From a bacterium (GTDB lineage: Bacteria; Patescibacteriota; Patescibacteriia; 2-12-FULL-60-25), in the NCBI GenBank assembly GCA_021796435.1, contig JAJYXM010000016.1, positions 182,625 through 246,624 on the forward strand: 64,000 bases of DNA, given 5' to 3'. The position numbers and the translations under genes are program-made. The notes beneath the pieces were generated by a model. It saw nothing but the letters and a program-made list of their open reading frames with translations. It was not told the origin of the DNA and made no database searches. This document shows positions 51,597-61,353 of the stretch, piece after piece. Every line of letters begins with the position of its first letter. The stretch's first letter is position 1.

Positions 51597-53104
<1,508 letters not shown>

Positions 53105-53358
53105 TAGGGAGAATATTTATCTCGAATTTATTCGGGATTAGATTCCCAGGTCGATTACTTTGCAGCAATGCAAAGAGTCACCCCGGTGTGGTCATAGTCA
53201 CTTTTCTGAATGTCGAAACAAGACATCCGCGTAAGCGGGTGTTTTTGGTATAAAAAAAGTATTTGGTACCTCGTACCGCGTGCTTCGTGGGTGCTGGGAC
53301 GTTGACAGCACAAGCGAAACTGCTATATATGACAGCGAGTTCTTTTGGAGGGCTGAGC

Positions 53359-53801: not shown

Positions 53802-54959
53802 ATGGATTTTAATAGACCCACAATACGCAAAGAATATGTACCCAAGATGGGTAACCGCTTGGCGGGAGGGGATACGGTACGGACACCAGACAGGGTGCCT
53901 TCGGGAGTCGAGGTTTCTTTGGAGATGGCGCTTAAGGCGTTGCTTGCGCGGGCCGAGAAGGAAAATCCGCATATCGCAAGGCTGTCTTTGCGTCTTCTTT
54001 CCAAGGGGGGAGAGAACATAGTGCTTGAATCCAGTGGTGCGAAGCACAAGGGTACGGTGTATAAGTTCAATTTCTTGAATTCATGGCCGGTCCTGATAGC
54101 GTCGAGCATGGGGCAAGAGGCGTTTGATGCGGCGGTCTCTGCGATGAAGGAGAAACAATCTACGCGAGAAGCCGACAATAAGGAGTTGCGTCAGTATTTC
54201 GGCGACACGGCGGTCATCCCGCAACGGTCTTTCGTCTGGAATGTGCCGGTCAGCTTCGATTTGGCGAAAAGCCTGATGCCAAAGCAGAAACTCCACGCAG
54301 TCGGGGCAGCCGAATCGATACCTGTTTGGGTGACGATGCAGCGCAAGATGGATCTGAGAAGTGATGACGTGCTTTCGGTGACCGGATACTATCCTGAGGA
54401 TCAGTACAACCGGCCGCCGGGCGAAAAGCCTACAATCTCTGACGAAGCCTATGATTTGGCTCACGAGATCCTGATCGGGCACGAACCGTTCGGTACGATG
54501 GACCATGAAAAGATGGATGCGATCGTCGCCATGTACCCTGATCTCGGGACATTAAATATGATGTGCCATGAGAGCCCGGCTTTCAGGGACAGATTGGCTG
54601 ATTTGACGTCACGCTTGATCTCTTATGCCAAGGAGACAGGCAAGGTGCTGGATCTTGCCGGGGATAACAACCTATTGTTGGAGAGGAAAGAAAAAGGGTG
54701 GAAGACCATATTGCTGGATGTGTTGCCAGGCATAGACATAAAATTCGATGATATCCTGCCTGTGTTAGAGAAATACAAGACGGCGGATGGCCCCTCAAGG
54801 ATGCGCTTGGGATATGCCTTGAATGTCTTGAATACGGTCAGGTTCAGTAATGCACTCGCGGAGATAAGCGGAGTCAAGGAACGAATCGCGATCGACGGTT
54901 TGGAGCAAGTCCCGGCAGCTTACTGGCGAGAGAATCTGCCGTCTTTGCTGCAAAGATGA
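53802..54959 (+). CDS. hypothetical protein, paralog 1 of a tandem pair; putative atypical kinase-like fold
   Basis: 385 aa. The ordered motifs resemble protein-kinase-like landmarks: a Gly-rich segment (SKGGENIVLE), an invariant Lys (GTVYKF), DLAGDNN (D-x4-N) and LLD about 20 aa later. Clear colinear similarity to the downstream gene. Confidence 0.55.
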   Translation: MDFNRPTIRKEYVPKMGNRLAGGDTVRTPDRVPSGVEVSLEMALKALLARAEKENPHIARLSLRLLSKGGENIVLESSGAKHKGTVYKFNFLNSWPVLIASSMGQEAFDAAVSAMKEKQSTREADNKELRQYFGDTAVIPQRSFVWNVPVSFDLAKSLMPKQKLHAVGAAESIPVWVTMQRKMDLRSDDVLSVTGYYPEDQYNRPPGEKPTISDEAYDLAHEILIGHEPFGTMDHEKMDAIVAMYPDLGTLNMMCHESPAFRDRLADLTSRLISYAKETGKVLDLAGDNNLLLERKEKGWKTILLDVLPGIDIKFDDILPVLEKYKTADGPSRMRLGYALNVLNTVRFSNALAEISGVKERIAIDGLEQVPAAYWRENLPSLLQR

Positions 54960-54960
54960 T

Positions 54961-56076
54961 ATGGGAAGAATAGAGAAAATGTTCAGAGAGACCAAAGTCG
55001 CGGCGAAAGCCACCTTCAATAGGGCGAAGCGCGGTTTTTCTCCGATCGAACCCGCGATGGCGGCAGCCGTGGATACTGCACTGACGAACCAGAAACATTG
55101 GCCGTATCTGGCGGCGAGAGGCGGGGAGCATCTGGTTTTTTCGTTCGATGATCCACGCTTGCAGGGCATAGTCTATAAGGTGAGCTATTTCGAGAGCTTG
55201 CCGATTTTGAGCGCTTGGTATGAGGGCGAAGATGCCGTTGAACGAAAATTGGAGTCCATGCATGAGGAGATGGACCAGCGTACGGCGAAACTCAAACGGA
55301 TGCGTGAATATTTCGGTTTCAACGCTGTGCCGCCGCAGCGTTTTGTGATCAAAAAATTGCCGGTGACCCATGCGTTGATCATGGCTCTGAAAGCGGAACA
55401 TCTAGTGCAGGGAATGGATTTGCCTAAAGAGCTGCCGGTTTGGGTGTGCGTCCAAAGAAAAATCAAGAAACCTGAAGGGCAGACCTATTCTTTGAACGGA
55501 TATTATCCGGAAAGCAAGAAAAGGCTTGGCAGGTCTTGGAGCAAGGAGGATATCGAGACTTATGACGCAGCGCATGATGTATTGTTCGGTGGTCCGTTGA
55601 GTGGGATGGATCAAGCGTCGCAGGAGCGATGGGTATTGTTGGAATATCCGGAGCTTCTTCCATTGTGGCAGGCGATGATAGGAGATCCGGCCCTCAAGAA
55701 AGAATTGCAGGATGTCGTCAAGAAGCTCATCACTTATACTAAAGAAACTGGTGAGTTGATGGAGTTGGCTGGGGAAGAGAATGCGGTTCTGCTTAAGGAG
55801 AAAGCCGGGTGGCAGGTCAAGTTGTTCGACGCTTTGCCCACGAAGGGCTTAAATCTTGAGAGATTCAGGGAAGTAACGGCGAAGTTAAAGTCCGGTAGGT
55901 CTTTGACGATGCCACAGAGATATGTGGCGATGAATGGTCTGAATACCTTGCGTTTCATCAACGCTTTGGCGCTGATCGCGGAAGTCCCGGAGAGGATGGT
56001 AGAGCCTGATGTATTATCCGTACCAGCTGAGACTTGGCGGCAAGAGATATCTAAAATCTTCAAAGACAAGACATAA
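54961..56076 (+). CDS. hypothetical protein, paralog 2 of the tandem pair; putative (pseudo)kinase-like fold
   Basis: 371 aa, colinear with paralog 1 (GIVYKVSYF, REYFGFNAVPPQRF, LPVWVCVQRK, NGYYPE, YDAAHDVLFG, ELAGEENAVLLKEKAGWQVKLFDALP, LNTLRFINALA). The putative catalytic Asp positions are Glu. Confidence 0.55.
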   Translation: MGRIEKMFRETKVAAKATFNRAKRGFSPIEPAMAAAVDTALTNQKHWPYLAARGGEHLVFSFDDPRLQGIVYKVSYFESLPILSAWYEGEDAVERKLESMHEEMDQRTAKLKRMREYFGFNAVPPQRFVIKKLPVTHALIMALKAEHLVQGMDLPKELPVWVCVQRKIKKPEGQTYSLNGYYPESKKRLGRSWSKEDIETYDAAHDVLFGGPLSGMDQASQERWVLLEYPELLPLWQAMIGDPALKKELQDVVKKLITYTKETGELMELAGEENAVLLKEKAGWQVKLFDALPTKGLNLERFREVTAKLKSGRSLTMPQRYVAMNGLNTLRFINALALIAEVPERMVEPDVLSVPAETWRQEISKIFKDKT

Positions 56077-56139
56077 CAAAACATCCTCTTGCGAGGATGT
56101 CTTGTATGGTGGACGGCAGAGGAGTCGAACCTCTGACCT
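56073..56139. repeat. direct repeat copy A (hairpin plus tRNA-Val 3' portion)
   Basis: ATAACAAAACATCCTCTTGCGAGGATGTCTTGTATGGTGGACGGCAGAGGAGTCGAACCTCTGACCT repeats at 56462-56528 with 2-3 mismatches. Confidence 0.75.
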
Positions 56140-56174
56140 CCCCGGTGTCCACCGGGGCGCTCTAATCAATCATC
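56107..56174 (-). pseudogene. partial duplicate of tRNA-Val (D-loop to CCA end, lacking the 5' acceptor strand)
   Basis: The minus strand reads GATTAGAGCG-CCCCGGTGGACACCGGGG-AGGTCAGAGGTTCGACTCCTCTGCCGTCCACCA. The T-arm and acceptor 3' strand are identical to the intact tRNA-Val. The anticodon-arm region is altered but keeps GAC. No complementary 5' acceptor strand is present. Confidence 0.6.
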
Positions 56175-56180
56175 TTTTTG

Positions 56181-56447
56181 TTAATTCGAATCGATGAAAA
56201 TCTTTTTTTCTTTGATGATTCGTTTAATCAAGCTCCTATCTTTCCAAGATTTAATTCTATATTCTAACCGTCTCGCTTGAAGTAAGGTCTTAGTTTCACG
56301 ATAGAATTCACATGACCATGGTCGTCCCGAGGCTGTGGACTTAGTCATCCCTGTATTGTGTTCGTGTAAGCGTCGGTTTAGATTATCGGTCGATCCGATA
56401 TAAAAGCGATTTCGTGTTTTTGAAAATAAGATGTAACAGTAGGCCAT
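56181..56447 (-). CDS. GIY-YIG nuclease family protein (homing-endonuclease-like)
   Basis: 88 aa with the GIY-YIG core (YCYILFSKTRNRFYIGSTDNLNRRLHEHN...). Lies between the two repeat copies. Confidence 0.85.
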   Translation of the reverse strand: MAYCYILFSKTRNRFYIGSTDNLNRRLHEHNTGMTKSTASGRPWSCEFYRETKTLLQARRLEYRIKSWKDRSLIKRIIKEKKIFIDSN

Positions 56448-56461
56448 GCTCCAGAGCTAAT

Positions 56462-56528
56462 ATAACAAAACATCCTCTTGCGAGGATGTTTTGCATGGTG
56501 GACGGCAGAGGAGTCGAACCTCTGACCT
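56462..56528. repeat. direct repeat copy B (hairpin plus tRNA-Val 3' portion)
   Basis: See copy A. This copy continues into the intact tRNA-Val. Confidence 0.75.
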
Positions 56529-56572
56529 TCACAATGTCAATGTGACGCTCTAACCAACTGAGCTAGCCGTCC
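56496..56572 (-). tRNA. tRNA-Val (anticodon GAC), CCA-encoded
   Basis: The minus strand reads GGACGGCTAGCTCAGTTGGTTAGAGCGTCACATTGACATTGTGAAGGTCAGAGGTTCGACTCCTCTGCCGTCCACCA. Cloverleaf has a 7-bp acceptor, D-arm, anticodon loop TTGACAT and T-loop TTCGACT. Confidence 0.85.
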
Positions 56573-56732
56573 GGACTTAGTCATTTTTAGTGTCTAAAAT
56601 GCGGTGCAAATTTAGCCGAAAAGATGGAATATGTCAAACAGCTCTGGAGACCGTAGGTTGGTGCGTGTGATACTTGTCTCGGGATGTGCTATAATCAAAC
56701 GGACATTAATCATTTCCTAATATCCTCATTTT

Positions 56733-58665: not shown

Positions 58666-61353
58666 TTGGTTGATATGCAAGAAAACGAAAAATGGCCAAA
58701 AGCCTACGATTCCTCGCAAGTGGAGAAGGATATCTATAAACACTGGGAAGAAAGCGGCTATTTTAACCCGGATACGCTACCGGAACGGAATCGTGGTGGA
58801 GAGATGTATAGCATCATGATGCCGCCGCCAAATGTCACGGGAGTCTTACATTTGGGTCATGCGATGGAGGATACGATCATGGACATCGCTGTCAGATTTC
58901 AGAGGATGCGCGGTAAGAAGGCGTTGTTGTTGCCAGGTACCGATCATGCGGCCATCGCGACGCAATCAAAAGTAGAAAAGTTATTGATGAAGGAGGGCGT
59001 CAAATATCCACGCGAGGAATTGGGGCGTGAGAAACTGGTGGAGAAGATCAGGGAATTCGCGGAGAACTCCAAGTCCACAATCTTGAGTCAGATCAGGGTA
59101 ATGGGCACAAGCTGTGATTGGTCGCGTTTAGCCTACACGCTTGATGAAGCGAGGAATCGAGCGGTCAACGAATTATTCGTCAGGATGTACAAGGATGGTT
59201 TGATTTATCGGGGATATAGAGTGGTCAATTGGTCCATCAAGGGTCAGATCACCTGTTCAGATGACGAAATCGTTTACATAGAAAGACCGGCTAAACTTTA
59301 TACATTCAAATACAGCAAGGATTTCCCTATAACGATCGCGACTACTCGTCCAGAGACGAAATTAGGGGACACGGCAGTGGCGGTGCATCCGGATGATGAA
59401 CGTTATAAAAAATACGTTGGTCAGACGTTCACTGTCGATATAGGCGCAGCGAAACCATTATTGATAAAGATCATCGCAGACGAAAGCGTAGAAAAGGATT
59501 TTGGGACTGGAGCTTTAGGGGTGACTCCTGCTCACAGCGCGGTAGATTTTACGATGTATGAAAAACAGAAAGCCAAGAATGATCCTATCGGTATCGTACC
59601 TGTGATTGGTACGGACGGCAGGATGACAGAAGCGGCAGGCAAGGATTATGTCGGCTTGACCGTCGAAGAAGCCAGGGAAAAATTCGTGTCTTGGCTGAAG
59701 ACGCGGGGTTTACTGGAGAGCGAAGAAGATATCACACAAAACGTCGGCACGTCTGATCGTTATGAGGACGTCGTGGAATCTTTGCCCATGACGCAGTGGT
59801 GGCTGGATATGAACAGGGAGATTCCAGGGCGTGGAAAGAGTTTACGCGACCTGATGCGCGAAGCCGTAACCACGGGATTAGACGGAAGTGCGGAGAAGAA
59901 AATCAGGATCATGCCTGAACGTATCGTCAAGGAGTACTTGGATCGCATTGATAATTTGCGCGATTGGTGTTTGTCTAGGCAGTTGTGGTGGGGGCATCGG
60001 ATCCCGGTCTGGTACAAAAAACAACCCGCCGTTACGAACGACGAATCTAGCGAGAAGGAGATGTATGTCGGAGCAGTTGCTCCCGAAGGAGAAGGGTGGG
60101 AACAGGATCCGGACACGTTGGATACGTGGTTTTCGTCAGGTTCTTGGACTTTTTCGACTTTGGGCTGGCCAGAAATAACGGAAGATCTGAAGCGCTATCA
60201 ACCGACAAGCTGGATGCAGATGGGTTATGAATTGAGATATTTATGGATGATGAGGATGATTTTGATGCATACCTACGTGCTAGAAGAGATTCCGTTCAAG
60301 GATTGTTATATCCATGGACTATTGAAGGATGAACATGGCAAGAAATTCTCGAAGTCTTCCGGCAACGGCATCGACCCGATCGAAGTCGTGGAGAGGTATG
60401 GATGCGACGCGCTTAGATTGAGTTTGATTTTGGGGATTTCACCAGGAAATGATTCCAAGTTCTATCTGGAGAAGGTAGAGGCAAATAGGAATCTGGTGAA
60501 TAAGATTTGGAATATTTCGAGATTCATCGTGTCATCGACTCAGGATACCGACTCCGCTTCGCGTGTGGAGGCAAAAACCCTGGCGGACAAATGGCTGTTG
60601 GCGAGACTCGCAGAGATAGAGTCTAGGGTAACGGAGATGCTTGAGAGCTATCAGTTTTCACAGGCGGGCGAGATGTTGCGCGACTTTACCTGGAGCGACT
60701 TAGCGGATTGGTACTTGGAGATTGCGAAAATCGAGAAGGGCAAGGAAGCGATATTGCGTCACATCCTCGAGACGGTTTTGAAATTATGGCATCCGTTCAT
60801 GCCGTTCGTGACGGAATACATCTGGGGATTGATGGGGAATAAGGATTTGATAGTGGCGGAGTGGCCAAAGGATGACGTACTGCGTACCGAGTACCGCGAA
60901 ACGGCAGAATTCGAAACAGTCCGCAATCTGGTGACCGATATCCGTAGGTTGCGGGCGGAGCAGGGAGTCGAACCGGCGAAATTTATAGAAGCTGGCGTGG
61001 CAGCAAGCGGTGACGATCAGCAGCGTCTGGAAGAAAACGTTGAAGTAATCAAACACTTGGCGCGTCTGTCGGAAATGAAATTAGTCGCGACGGTGCCGGA
61101 AGGTTGGGCGACTACCATTTCCGGTGTGATAACTGTCGGCATAAACGTCGCAGGTACGGTCGATAAAGAGAAGGAGAAAGCTAAAGCGGAAAAGGAGATA
61201 GCGGAACTCAAACCGTACATCACATCATTGCAGGCTAAGCTGCAGAATGAGGAATTCACCTCTAAAGCACCGGAGAAAGTCGTGCAGGGGATGAAGGATA
61301 AGCTGGCGGAGGCGGAAGCTAAACTCAAGGCGCTTGAAGATACGTCGACTTAG
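58666..61353 (+). CDS. valS: valine--tRNA ligase
   Basis: 895 aa class I aaRS with HIGH (PPPNVTGVLHLGHA), KMSKS (KFSKSSGNG) and a ValRS-type C-terminal coiled coil. Confidence 0.93.
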   Translation: MVDMQENEKWPKAYDSSQVEKDIYKHWEESGYFNPDTLPERNRGGEMYSIMMPPPNVTGVLHLGHAMEDTIMDIAVRFQRMRGKKALLLPGTDHAAIATQSKVEKLLMKEGVKYPREELGREKLVEKIREFAENSKSTILSQIRVMGTSCDWSRLAYTLDEARNRAVNELFVRMYKDGLIYRGYRVVNWSIKGQITCSDDEIVYIERPAKLYTFKYSKDFPITIATTRPETKLGDTAVAVHPDDERYKKYVGQTFTVDIGAAKPLLIKIIADESVEKDFGTGALGVTPAHSAVDFTMYEKQKAKNDPIGIVPVIGTDGRMTEAAGKDYVGLTVEEAREKFVSWLKTRGLLESEEDITQNVGTSDRYEDVVESLPMTQWWLDMNREIPGRGKSLRDLMREAVTTGLDGSAEKKIRIMPERIVKEYLDRIDNLRDWCLSRQLWWGHRIPVWYKKQPAVTNDESSEKEMYVGAVAPEGEGWEQDPDTLDTWFSSGSWTFSTLGWPEITEDLKRYQPTSWMQMGYELRYLWMMRMILMHTYVLEEIPFKDCYIHGLLKDEHGKKFSKSSGNGIDPIEVVERYGCDALRLSLILGISPGNDSKFYLEKVEANRNLVNKIWNISRFIVSSTQDTDSASRVEAKTLADKWLLARLAEIESRVTEMLESYQFSQAGEMLRDFTWSDLADWYLEIAKIEKGKEAILRHILETVLKLWHPFMPFVTEYIWGLMGNKDLIVAEWPKDDVLRTEYRETAEFETVRNLVTDIRRLRAEQGVEPAKFIEAGVAASGDDQQRLEENVEVIKHLARLSEMKLVATVPEGWATTISGVITVGINVAGTVDKEKEKAKAEKEIAELKPYITSLQAKLQNEEFTSKAPEKVVQGMKDKLAEAEAKLKALEDTST

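Follow-up and report, generated by a model that had tools for sequence, protein, structure and literature searches.

Nucleases and mobile elements at tRNA genes

SegB of phage T4 belongs to the I-TevI/Seg lineage and is a protein of about 220 amino acids (aa) that carries a DNA-binding region. It is a free-standing GIY-YIG homing enzyme from a tRNA gene cluster, the 27-bp site of which includes the conserved T-psi-C motif of tRNA, and its gene spreads together with flanking tRNA DNA by break repair (PMC2330249). This precedent bears on a compact cassette that lies directly behind a tRNA-Val(GAC) gene on the minus strand of a 64-kb stretch of bacterial DNA from contig JAJYXM010000016.1 (the whole stretch is referred to as the window, and positions are those of the window). 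As with SegB, a GIY-YIG nuclease gene is found among tRNA genes and is present or absent among relatives, and the manner in which SegB spreads provides the most plausible working model for the cassette. Unlike SegB, the cassette protein is a bare 88-aa domain of the SLX1/UPF0213 type from which a tethered DNA-binding domain is missing, and its family is cellular rather than phage-borne, is nested between a tRNA and its partial copy, and has a hairpin in place of the anticodon arm.

Islands, prophages and integrative and conjugative elements that integrate at tRNA genes leave a comparable trace, in the form of a complete and a partial tRNA as direct repeats with the partial copy adjoining the ancestral downstream flank, but they measure roughly 9-23 kb or more against the 0.3 kb of the cassette, which is without an integrase (PMC9897764). 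The cassette differs from them further in its substituted anticodon arm, in the variable end of its duplication and in the existence of a mirror-image polarity.

The protein itself invites comparison with the SLX1/UPF0213 group. SLX1 works with SLX4 on branched DNA in repair, and the characterised bacterial UPF0213 members are single-copy genes not known to be linked to tRNAs. The window protein has the same minimal domain as BH0048, EF2693 and Slx1, with the same constellation of Tyr, Tyr, Arg, His and Glu, whereas the clade of the cassette is sporadic, multicopy and tRNA-nested and has a cognate hairpin. Finally, and by way of analogy only, REP/REPIN sequences with RAYT, and likewise IS200/IS605, combine a small nuclease gene with short GC-rich palindromic hairpins, the enzymes in these cases being HUH (Y1) transposases. 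The cassette family resembles these systems in that its hairpins multiply nearby, have perfect covarying stems and occur as hairpin-in-hairpin structures in loci L027, L078 and L093; it differs from both systems in having a GIY-YIG nuclease and a hairpin that lies within tRNA copies and is single in the window.

The tRNA-Val locus and its empty counterparts

The cassette is an insertion that close relatives lack. The DHH-family gene that neighbours it was used to fetch 20 related loci from GTDB genomes, these being Patescibacteria with several labelled Candidatus Uhrbacteria, and tRNA-Val(GAC) lies nearby in 11 of the 20. Ten of the 11 are empty and one, L005, is filled. L001 is the closest relative found (DHH 88% and the downstream gene, ORF371, 84% identical to the window), and there the tRNA is followed by one hairpin and the same downstream gene, without the open reading frame (ORF) and without the second tRNA copy. 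What, then, does the filled locus contain? Its parts, all on the minus strand, are as follows.

56609 to 56637, minus strand: sigma-70-like promoter, TTGACA-17-TAAATT, upstream of the intact tRNA-Val
56496 to 56572, minus strand: intact tRNA-Val(GAC) with encoded CCA (ARAGORN; Rfam RF00005, 70.6 bits)
56462 to 56495, minus strand: hairpin H1, TGCAAAACATCCTCGCAAGAGGATGTTTTGTTAT, 34 nt, the proximal copy of the tRNA terminator hairpin
56448 to 56461, minus strand: 5' untranslated region of the ORF, ATTAGCTCTGGAGC, 14 nt, with a GGAG Shine-Dalgarno sequence 3 nt before the ATG
56181 to 56447, minus strand: gene for an 88-aa stand-alone GIY-YIG nuclease of SLX1/UPF0213 type (Pfam PF01541)
about 56175 to 56107, minus strand: pseudo-tRNA, a 5'-truncated tRNA copy (local and multiple alignment)
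56158 to 56175, minus strand: degenerate D-arm remnant of the pseudo-tRNA, AGATGATTGATTAGAGCG against native AGCTCAGTTGGTTAGAGCG (local and multiple alignment)
56140 to 56157, minus strand: signature hairpin (ALT), CCCCGG-TGGACA-CCGGGG, 18 nt, in place of the 17-nt anticodon arm
56107 to 56139, minus strand: 3' part of the pseudo-tRNA, from the variable loop through the T arm and 3' acceptor strand to the CCA, matching 56496-56528 at 33/33 positions
56073 to 56106, minus strand: hairpin H2, the ancestral intrinsic terminator (terminator scan; alignment to L001)
56170 to 56462, minus strand: insert-specific DNA, 293 bp, missing from the empty site of L001 (BLAST of window against L001)

The cassette consists of a promoterless SLX1-type GIY-YIG gene and a disarmed tRNA-Val fragment with a conserved GC hairpin, placed right behind the resident tRNA-Val. 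The sole promoter-like site for the tRNA/ORF unit on that strand is the one upstream of the tRNA, the sequence of which is kept in L001. The intact tRNA is the only one called by ARAGORN over the whole window, and its sequence is matched at 77/77 positions in the empty sites L001-L004 and L009. H1 and H2 are the same 34-nt hairpin with 2 mismatches; H2 runs on into the chromosomal flank common to L001 and passes the terminator scan, whereas H1, the tail of which is poorer in T, does not, making read-through into the ORF plausible. The TAGCT motif of the 5' untranslated region is common to related cassettes (GATAGCTGT in L005, L024 and L039; GAAGCTAT in L025). In the pseudo-tRNA the 5' acceptor strand is missing. 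Recognisable homology to tRNA sets in within the D arm, where it is degenerate at first (about 56175) and becomes clean at 56166 (TTAGAGCG), and neither ARAGORN nor, even at E<=1, Rfam recognises this copy as a tRNA.

The duplicated DNA forms a direct repeat of 77 nt (56073-56149 and 56462-56538; 92% identity, spacing 389) around a 67-nt core (56073-56139 and 56462-56528) in which 65 of 67 positions (97%) are identical. One 94-nt segment of L001 (7989-8082), which spans the tRNA from the D loop onward and ends with the terminator, has a counterpart on either side of the window insert. The same arrangement is found in L005, a more distant, Uhrbacteria-like locus in which three host proteins are 50-53% and the nuclease 61% identical to those of the window, and L004, which is related to L005 (flanks about 80% identical in nucleotides), is an empty site. 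Both in the window and in L005 the ancestral upstream flank borders on the intact tRNA and the ancestral downstream flank on the partial one. The extent of the duplication past the CCA varies, being 0 nt in L005, 14 nt in L036 and 34 nt in the window, so the junction is not a fixed att core.

These results largely uphold the initial annotation, made from the sequence alone, in which a tRNA-Val(GAC), a hairpin, an 88-aa GIY-YIG ORF, a partial tRNA and the hairpin again had been described in that order and as a near-identical repeat: every element is present where it had been placed. The proposed insertion at tRNA-Val is now seen as a presence/absence polymorphism, with L001 and nine other related tRNA-Val loci empty and the window and L005 filled. 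The second copy is neither a complete nor an intron-bearing tRNA, and the filled relatives have the repeats as well. Site-specific integration, one of two routes put forward for the duplication, does not fare so well. Could the locus be what is left of an integrase-mediated island or prophage in the 3' half of tRNA-Val, with the partial tRNA as attR and the GIY-YIG gene as leftover cargo? A complete and a partial tRNA in direct repeat are the textbook signature of such an event (PMC9897764). Against this, the 293 bp of insert-specific DNA hold a single ORF, the GIY-YIG gene, and neither an integrase nor any other gene; the identical compact architecture is found in dozens of independent loci; and the repeat is not a simple att core, since the copy reaches back into the D arm, has a substituted arm and ends at varying distances past the CCA. 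An origin of this kind is very improbable. An artefact of assembly, or chance similarity, is less credible still: repeats can mislead the assembly of metagenome-derived genomes, yet the identity of the repeats and the ordered tRNA-derived structure lie far beyond chance and the same arrangement appears in independent assemblies (L005, L024, L025 and dozens more).

Two further candidates were rejected. A tRNA group I intron with an endonuclease ORF does not apply, as the tRNA is uninterrupted and Rfam finds no ribozyme in the window or in 16 related loci; at a permissive E-value, Rfam returned only tRNA and rRNA for the locus, the 16 related loci and the whole window. Pairing of the orphan 3' acceptor strand with a GGACGAC upstream inside the ORF was also considered and dismissed, GGACGAC not being conserved in L005.

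Some smaller features of the locus can be added. A 12-mer, ATGACTAAGTCC, lies directly 5' of the intact tRNA (56573-56584) and again within the GIY-YIG ORF (56337-56348), both on the minus strand, and the empty-site relative has a related yet different leader there; the recurrence may be chance or a trace of past recombination. A convergent gene on the plus strand (54961-56076) has its stop codon overlapped by H2, and as it ends within this hairpin H2 looks like a bidirectional terminator. This 371-aa ORF and its adjacent neighbour on the same strand (53802-54959, 385 aa) have no Pfam match and appear paralogous by eye.

The nuclease

The GIY-YIG identity of the protein, as initially annotated, is borne out by a match to Pfam PF01541 over residues 1-71 (58.7 bits against a cut-off of 22.6, E=7e-16). 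Among 40 homologues H30 and E62 are invariant and Y5, Y16 and R26 are at least 90% conserved, which are residues of the catalytic type. The AlphaFold2 model (pLDDT, the predicted local confidence score, 93.2) has the order E-E-H-E-H-H, a three-stranded sheet flanked by helices as in the GIY-YIG fold. In profile searches of the PDB the best matches are 1zg2 (BH0048; 5e-11), 1ywl (EF2693; 3e-7), Slx1 (5e-6) and I-TevI (1e-3), and Foldseek ranks Slx1 (7cq3, 4xlg) and 1zg2 first, with a probability of 1.00 and 31-33% identity to Slx1. I-TevI and UvrC are also among the structural matches. Judged by these profiles and the predicted structure, the nuclease belongs to the SLX1/UPF0213 branch, with I-TevI and UvrC clearly more distant. 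The 88 aa correspond to the catalytic domain alone, with no accessory or DNA-binding domain, and no Asn occurs among the invariant or nearly invariant columns after E62, as described for the minimal domain (PMC1564403).

Searches for homologues gave very different yields. An exact-sequence look-up of the window protein gave no match and a word-indexed homologue search just two, while an exhaustive HMMER search returned 3853 clusters at E<=1e-3, mostly of 80-110 aa. A phage origin was considered and rejected: the nuclease family has no match in PHROGs and one weak partial match in IMG/VR. Some database proteins of about 200 aa (P0003, P0007 and P0016) are gene-caller read-throughs, in which either two nuclease units are joined by a translated pseudo-tRNA (for example ...DPRFESLHPS...) or an N-terminal extension represents a translated tRNA gene.

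A family of tRNA-nested cassettes

The design seen in the window is shared by a large family of nuclease genes of about 80-90 aa. A metagenome profile scan supplied the best 80 loci of more than 540 confirmed matches; the profile was built around the window's clade, and the tRNA association described here applies to that clade and not to all UPF0213 proteins. Where full flanks were available, 62 of 71 homologues have a tRNA on the same strand within -135 to +35 nt of the ORF and none has one on the opposite strand (0/71). A hairpin of the form NNCCGR-loop-YCGGNN accompanies 55 of the 71, and 70 have either the tRNA or the hairpin. The partner tRNAs fall, according to ARAGORN, into 18 anticodon classes, one of which (Pro-CGG) represents misreads of pseudo-Val copies, leaving about 17 tRNA species that include Val-GAC/TAC/CAC, Ala-TGC/GGC/CGC, Gly, Lys, Pro, Asp, Thr, Ile, His and Ser.

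Two polarities are found. In type A, that of the window, the intact tRNA is followed by the ORF and then by a pseudo-tRNA with the hairpin at the place of the anticodon arm. This pseudo-tRNA may start in the D arm, or it may even be complete, in which case it overlaps the last codons of the ORF. In type B a 5' pseudo-tRNA, comprising the acceptor strand, D arm, hairpin and a few nt of the T stem, precedes the ORF, which is followed by the intact tRNA, the 5' end of which overlaps the ORF stop codon. Full forms, with pseudo-5' copy, tRNA, ORF and pseudo-3' copy, occur in L024, L036 and L066, tandem cassette arrays in L023, L049, L065 and L083, and rRNA-operon spacers harbour some of the cassettes, for example in L083. 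A search of the literature, from which most subscription journals were missing, turned up no account of small GIY-YIG genes nested at tRNAs or of the hairpin; this is weak as a negative, and the family appears to be undescribed so far.

A number of observations relate to individual loci. The type B stop codon is a TAG at positions 8-10 of the downstream intact tRNA (for example L029 664-674 and L075 2405-2414), such that processing by RNase P would take the stop codon off the message; it is possible, as an inference only, that this provides a built-in limit on nuclease expression. In L021-L023 a pseudo-tRNA-Val(TAC) with a T-loop insertion of about 45 nt follows each ORF, and units of ORF, pseudo-tRNA and terminator stand in tandem. 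Arrays of solo pseudo-tRNAs without ORFs are present in L083 (about 1290-1583, with a period of about 74 nt) and L102 (about 2228-2400), with the hairpin GTCCGATTGTATCGGAC in each unit. ARAGORN miscalls hairpin-bearing pseudo-tRNAs as tRNA-Pro(CGG), as a second tRNA-Ala(TGC), or as a tRNA of undetermined type whose anticodon has 4 nt, as follows.

L032 1132-1208: miscalled pseudo-tRNA (ARAGORN)
L099 2730-2806: miscalled pseudo-tRNA (ARAGORN)
L024 320-396: miscalled pseudo-tRNA (ARAGORN)
L090 3062-3135: miscalled pseudo-tRNA (ARAGORN)
L035 2735-2807: miscalled pseudo-tRNA (ARAGORN)

Signs of mobility and DNA breakage

In a neighbour-joining tree the nucleases group by tRNA species and polarity with several switches, such that a Thr-GGT type A protein is nested among type B proteins of Ile and Val-CAC, and Gly-GCC and Asp proteins lie among those of Ala-GGC. 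In L101 the pseudo-5' arm derives from a different tRNA-Ala(GGC) allele than the resident tRNA-Ala, which indicates that the arm travelled with the cassette. L101 excepted, arms that are long (at least 24-33 nt) never differ from the neighbouring tRNA, while the short D-arm piece decays, a pattern that gene conversion with a minimal homology length would give. Breakpoints are also evident: the upstream tRNA piece starts exactly at anticodon-loop position 32 in L044/L048 and L087, and at about position 27 in L103. To these can be added the greater identity between the window and L005 of the nuclease than of the three host proteins.

Is there any need to invoke mobility at all? The gene could be a host housekeeping or repair nuclease that rides on tRNA operons for its expression, the repeats being local tandem duplications with unequal crossovers and the hairpin an element for mRNA stability or translational control. 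The ORFs are indeed without their own promoters and overlap the ends of tRNAs, the long arms match the neighbouring tRNA in the way that local duplication or gene conversion predicts, and SLX1-like proteins are considered to be repair enzymes (PMC1564403). However, the gene is missing at the same locus in the closest relatives, several phyla show the same design, with about 17 tRNA species as partners and with changes of target and polarity, there are a foreign arm in L101 and ectopic truncated copies, and the core of the hairpin is conserved across hosts that otherwise share nothing. A resident, immobile gene is therefore an improbable explanation.

The signature hairpin

The ALT arm of the pseudo-tRNA, CCCCGGTGGACACCGGGG, is a near-perfect GC palindrome, one nucleotide longer than the native arm (18 against 17 nt), and forms a stem of 7 bp. 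It had initially been taken for a diverged anticodon arm with compensatory changes that retained GAC. The arm is instead a family-wide signature hairpin found in the pseudo-copies of many tRNA species, and although GAC is there in the window it is not conserved, L005 having TAC and other Val-GAC cassettes loops such as CCGGG, CGCAG and the like; on this comparison the GAC is incidental. The 18 nt are identical in L025 (18/18) and nearly so in L005 (17/18), where CCCCGG-TGTACA-CCGGGG is a perfect palindrome, while the nucleases of the window, L005 and L025 are just 61-64% identical to one another. In L025, the nuclease of which is 64% identical, exactly the window's 18 nt recur, but within a 5' pseudo-tRNA that precedes the intact tRNA.

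Across the loci, hairpins of this class number 228 compared to about 51 in shuffles (about 4.5-fold), and are concentrated near the ORFs, with 121 in the 47.5 kb adjoining them against 107 in the remaining 257 kb. The hairpins that accompany the 55 homologues lie at the place that the anticodon arm would occupy in a partial tRNA copy, and their outer pairs covary. In 19 aligned type-A pseudo-tRNAs, with the T arm as a positive control, 97.7% of the cells of the 7-bp stem are paired; 4 of the 7 pairs change on both sides and 3 are invariant (C-G, C-G and G-C). The pattern by which these sequences were chosen leaves no freedom in the core and restricts the mismatches allowed in six pairs, but the seventh pair (UA 10, CG 8) lies outside the pattern and is so independent of it. 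Independent of it too are the compensatory swaps within single clades, as between GGCCGA/TCGGCC, GCCCGA/TCGGGC and CCCCGA/TCGGGG. Distinct perfect 7-bp stems number 62 against 10 with one mismatch. Most likely, then, from these patterns of pairing, the hairpin is under selection for its ability to pair. The loop ranges from 3 to 14 nt, and such variation argues for a folded strand or cruciform rather than a duplex site of fixed spacing.

Additional hairpins, at times nested, occur in the D loops of pseudo-copies in L027, L028, L045, L078, L093, L095 and L097. Those of the same class (TCCGAC-N4-GTCGGA, CTCCGAC-N5-GTCGGAG and TCCCGA-N-TCGGGA) are found in the acceptor stem or D loop, and some lie inside the loop of another. 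Their positions in pseudo-tRNAs are listed below.

L027, about 2390-2440: extra hairpins
L078, about 2385-2470: extra hairpins
L093, about 500-560: extra hairpins
L095: extra hairpins
L097: extra hairpins

Elsewhere in the window the pattern is not enriched, the hairpin being single and not dispersed, so that hairpin proliferation is not a feature of the window's genome. Analogy of the palindrome to an integron attC site or to a Xer/dif-like core site was rejected in both cases, as the consensus sequences differ, the loops vary in length, and all cassettes have the same gene.

A pairing element within a tRNA scaffold also raises the question of whether the module operates on RNA. The nuclease might act on tRNA or tRNA-like RNA, as an anticodon-arm nuclease or as a processing or quality-control factor, with the hairpin-bearing pseudo-tRNA as its RNA partner, serving as a decoy, antidote or autoregulatory site in a manner like type III toxin-antitoxin systems, the pair being encoded next to the tRNA in question. 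A TrmH-GIY-YIG fusion has led others to propose an RNA role for bacterial Slx1-like proteins (PMC1564403). Such a role would fit with the exact placement of the hairpin in a tRNA scaffold, with covariation, and with a loop more in keeping with a folded strand than with a duplex dimer site; it would fit, too, with the arrays of hairpin-bearing pseudo-tRNAs that adjoin the gene in L083 and L102 (none is found in the window) and with the way each protein clade keeps to one tRNA species. Sense-strand mismatches lean in the same direction, with 5 G.T to 1 A.C, a difference that is not significant (p=0.22) in stems that are almost always perfect. On the other hand, no GIY-YIG enzyme is known to cleave RNA, and the protein fold is that of a DNA nuclease and not of the ToxN-like RNases of type III toxin-antitoxin systems. 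Most pseudo-tRNAs are truncated and unable to fold as tRNAs, that of L023 has the 45-nt T-loop insert, and the anticodon-arm breakpoints, the foreign arm of L101 and the insertion polymorphism need a process at the level of DNA anyway. An RNA-level module is accordingly rather unlikely.

A model for the spread of the cassette

The explanation preferred here, in which moderate confidence is placed, is that the nuclease cassette is selfish and homing-like, resides in duplicated tRNA genes and uses tRNA-derived arms for its recombination. The ORF would be expressed by read-through from the tRNA promoter, as suggested by the lone promoter-like site upstream of the tRNA and the weak T tail of H1. 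The nuclease would then break the DNA of the tRNA gene, probably in a structure-dependent manner, at or near the anticodon arm, a position predicted from the rearranged copies that break there and from the fact that this arm is always the one replaced by the cassette. The break would be repaired by recombination with a cassette-bearing allele, for which the tRNA-derived arms, measuring 33-67 nt on the 3' side in the window, would supply the homology, and as tRNA genes are nearly identical across species this homology would be portable. In this way the cassette would be copied into empty tRNA loci, leaving an intact tRNA and an unharmed host and giving rise to the direct repeats, which in turn would permit both precise loss and tandem amplification. 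The hairpin would act as a cis element, most likely as a version of the arm to which the nuclease binds or which it is unable to cut. Duplication mediated by a homing endonuclease, the second route put forward initially, is the nearer of the two to this mechanism, though it too is arrived at indirectly and the nuclease, a bare domain of the SLX1/UPF0213 type, stands outside the classical homing lineage.

A number of points weigh against a selfish homing cassette. The cleavage activity, specificity and target of the enzyme, together with the role of the hairpin, rest on inference from sequence, and every GIY-YIG homing enzyme characterised so far has the DNA-binding domain that this protein lacks. 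Since the intact tRNA of the filled locus is the same at all 77 positions as the empty allele, classical self-immunity through disruption of the target is not evident; the window duplicates even the 34 nt downstream of the tRNA, with the alteration confined to the partial copy. The SLX1 lineage is regarded as vertically inherited and non-selfish (PMC1564403). Common descent, together with repeated precise loss by way of the repeats, could also account for the presence of the cassette in both the window and L005, and the excess of nuclease over host-protein identity between them is small. The family is essentially absent from viral contigs, which offer no evident vehicle for transfer between cells. 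Simple homing, moreover, explains neither the conservation of the CCG/CGG hairpin core across all tRNA species nor the extra nested hairpins in some pseudo-tRNA leaders, and it is this core conservation and hairpin multiplication that keep alive both the RNA-level explanation and a further one in which the element is directed by structure.

In this last case the cassettes would represent a new class of mobile element, with an SLX1-type mini-nuclease specific for structure and a cognate NNCCGR-loop-YCGGNN hairpin as its components, which would spread by structure-directed breakage of the anticodon arm and not through a sequence specificity read by the protein. The proposal is tentative, and on present evidence doubtful, but it would explain how about 17 tRNA species in two polarities were colonised by one protein family. 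It would also explain why the anticodon arm is replaced so exactly and why hairpins insert into D loops and into each other, and the element would be the first selfish branch of the Slx1 lineage.

Were the homing-like model correct, the tRNA loci of many uncultivated or environmental bacteria would host a compact selfish element that uses the conservation of tRNA as portable homology. The element is found in Patescibacteria-like genomes and in other lineages, rRNA-operon spacers included. The minimal GIY-YIG domain of the SLX1 type, thought of as a vertically inherited repair enzyme, would then have a mobile branch, and a nuclease of 80-90 aa with a defined hairpin of 17-18 nt would make a very small and experimentally tractable pair of nuclease and site. 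There are also practical consequences for annotation: miscalled pseudo-tRNAs are a pitfall for tRNA gene counts, and the proteins look larger in databases than they are where tRNA DNA has been translated by read-through.

Neighbouring genes

A gene for valyl-tRNA synthetase (valS) lies on the plus strand at 58666-61353, 2 kb from tRNA-Val, and is just 57% identical to that of L001. The genes between valS and the tRNA are 76-88% identical to L001 (DHH 88%, ORF190 76%), and beyond the tRNA the figure for ORF371 is 84%. The comparison suggests that valS has been replaced or transferred in one lineage. A complete 16S rRNA gene is present on the plus strand at 51598-53103, with no 23S rRNA gene in the next 11 kb, and a 1.25-kb segment of the window that includes part of the 16S gene (52000-53247) is 98% identical to L001.

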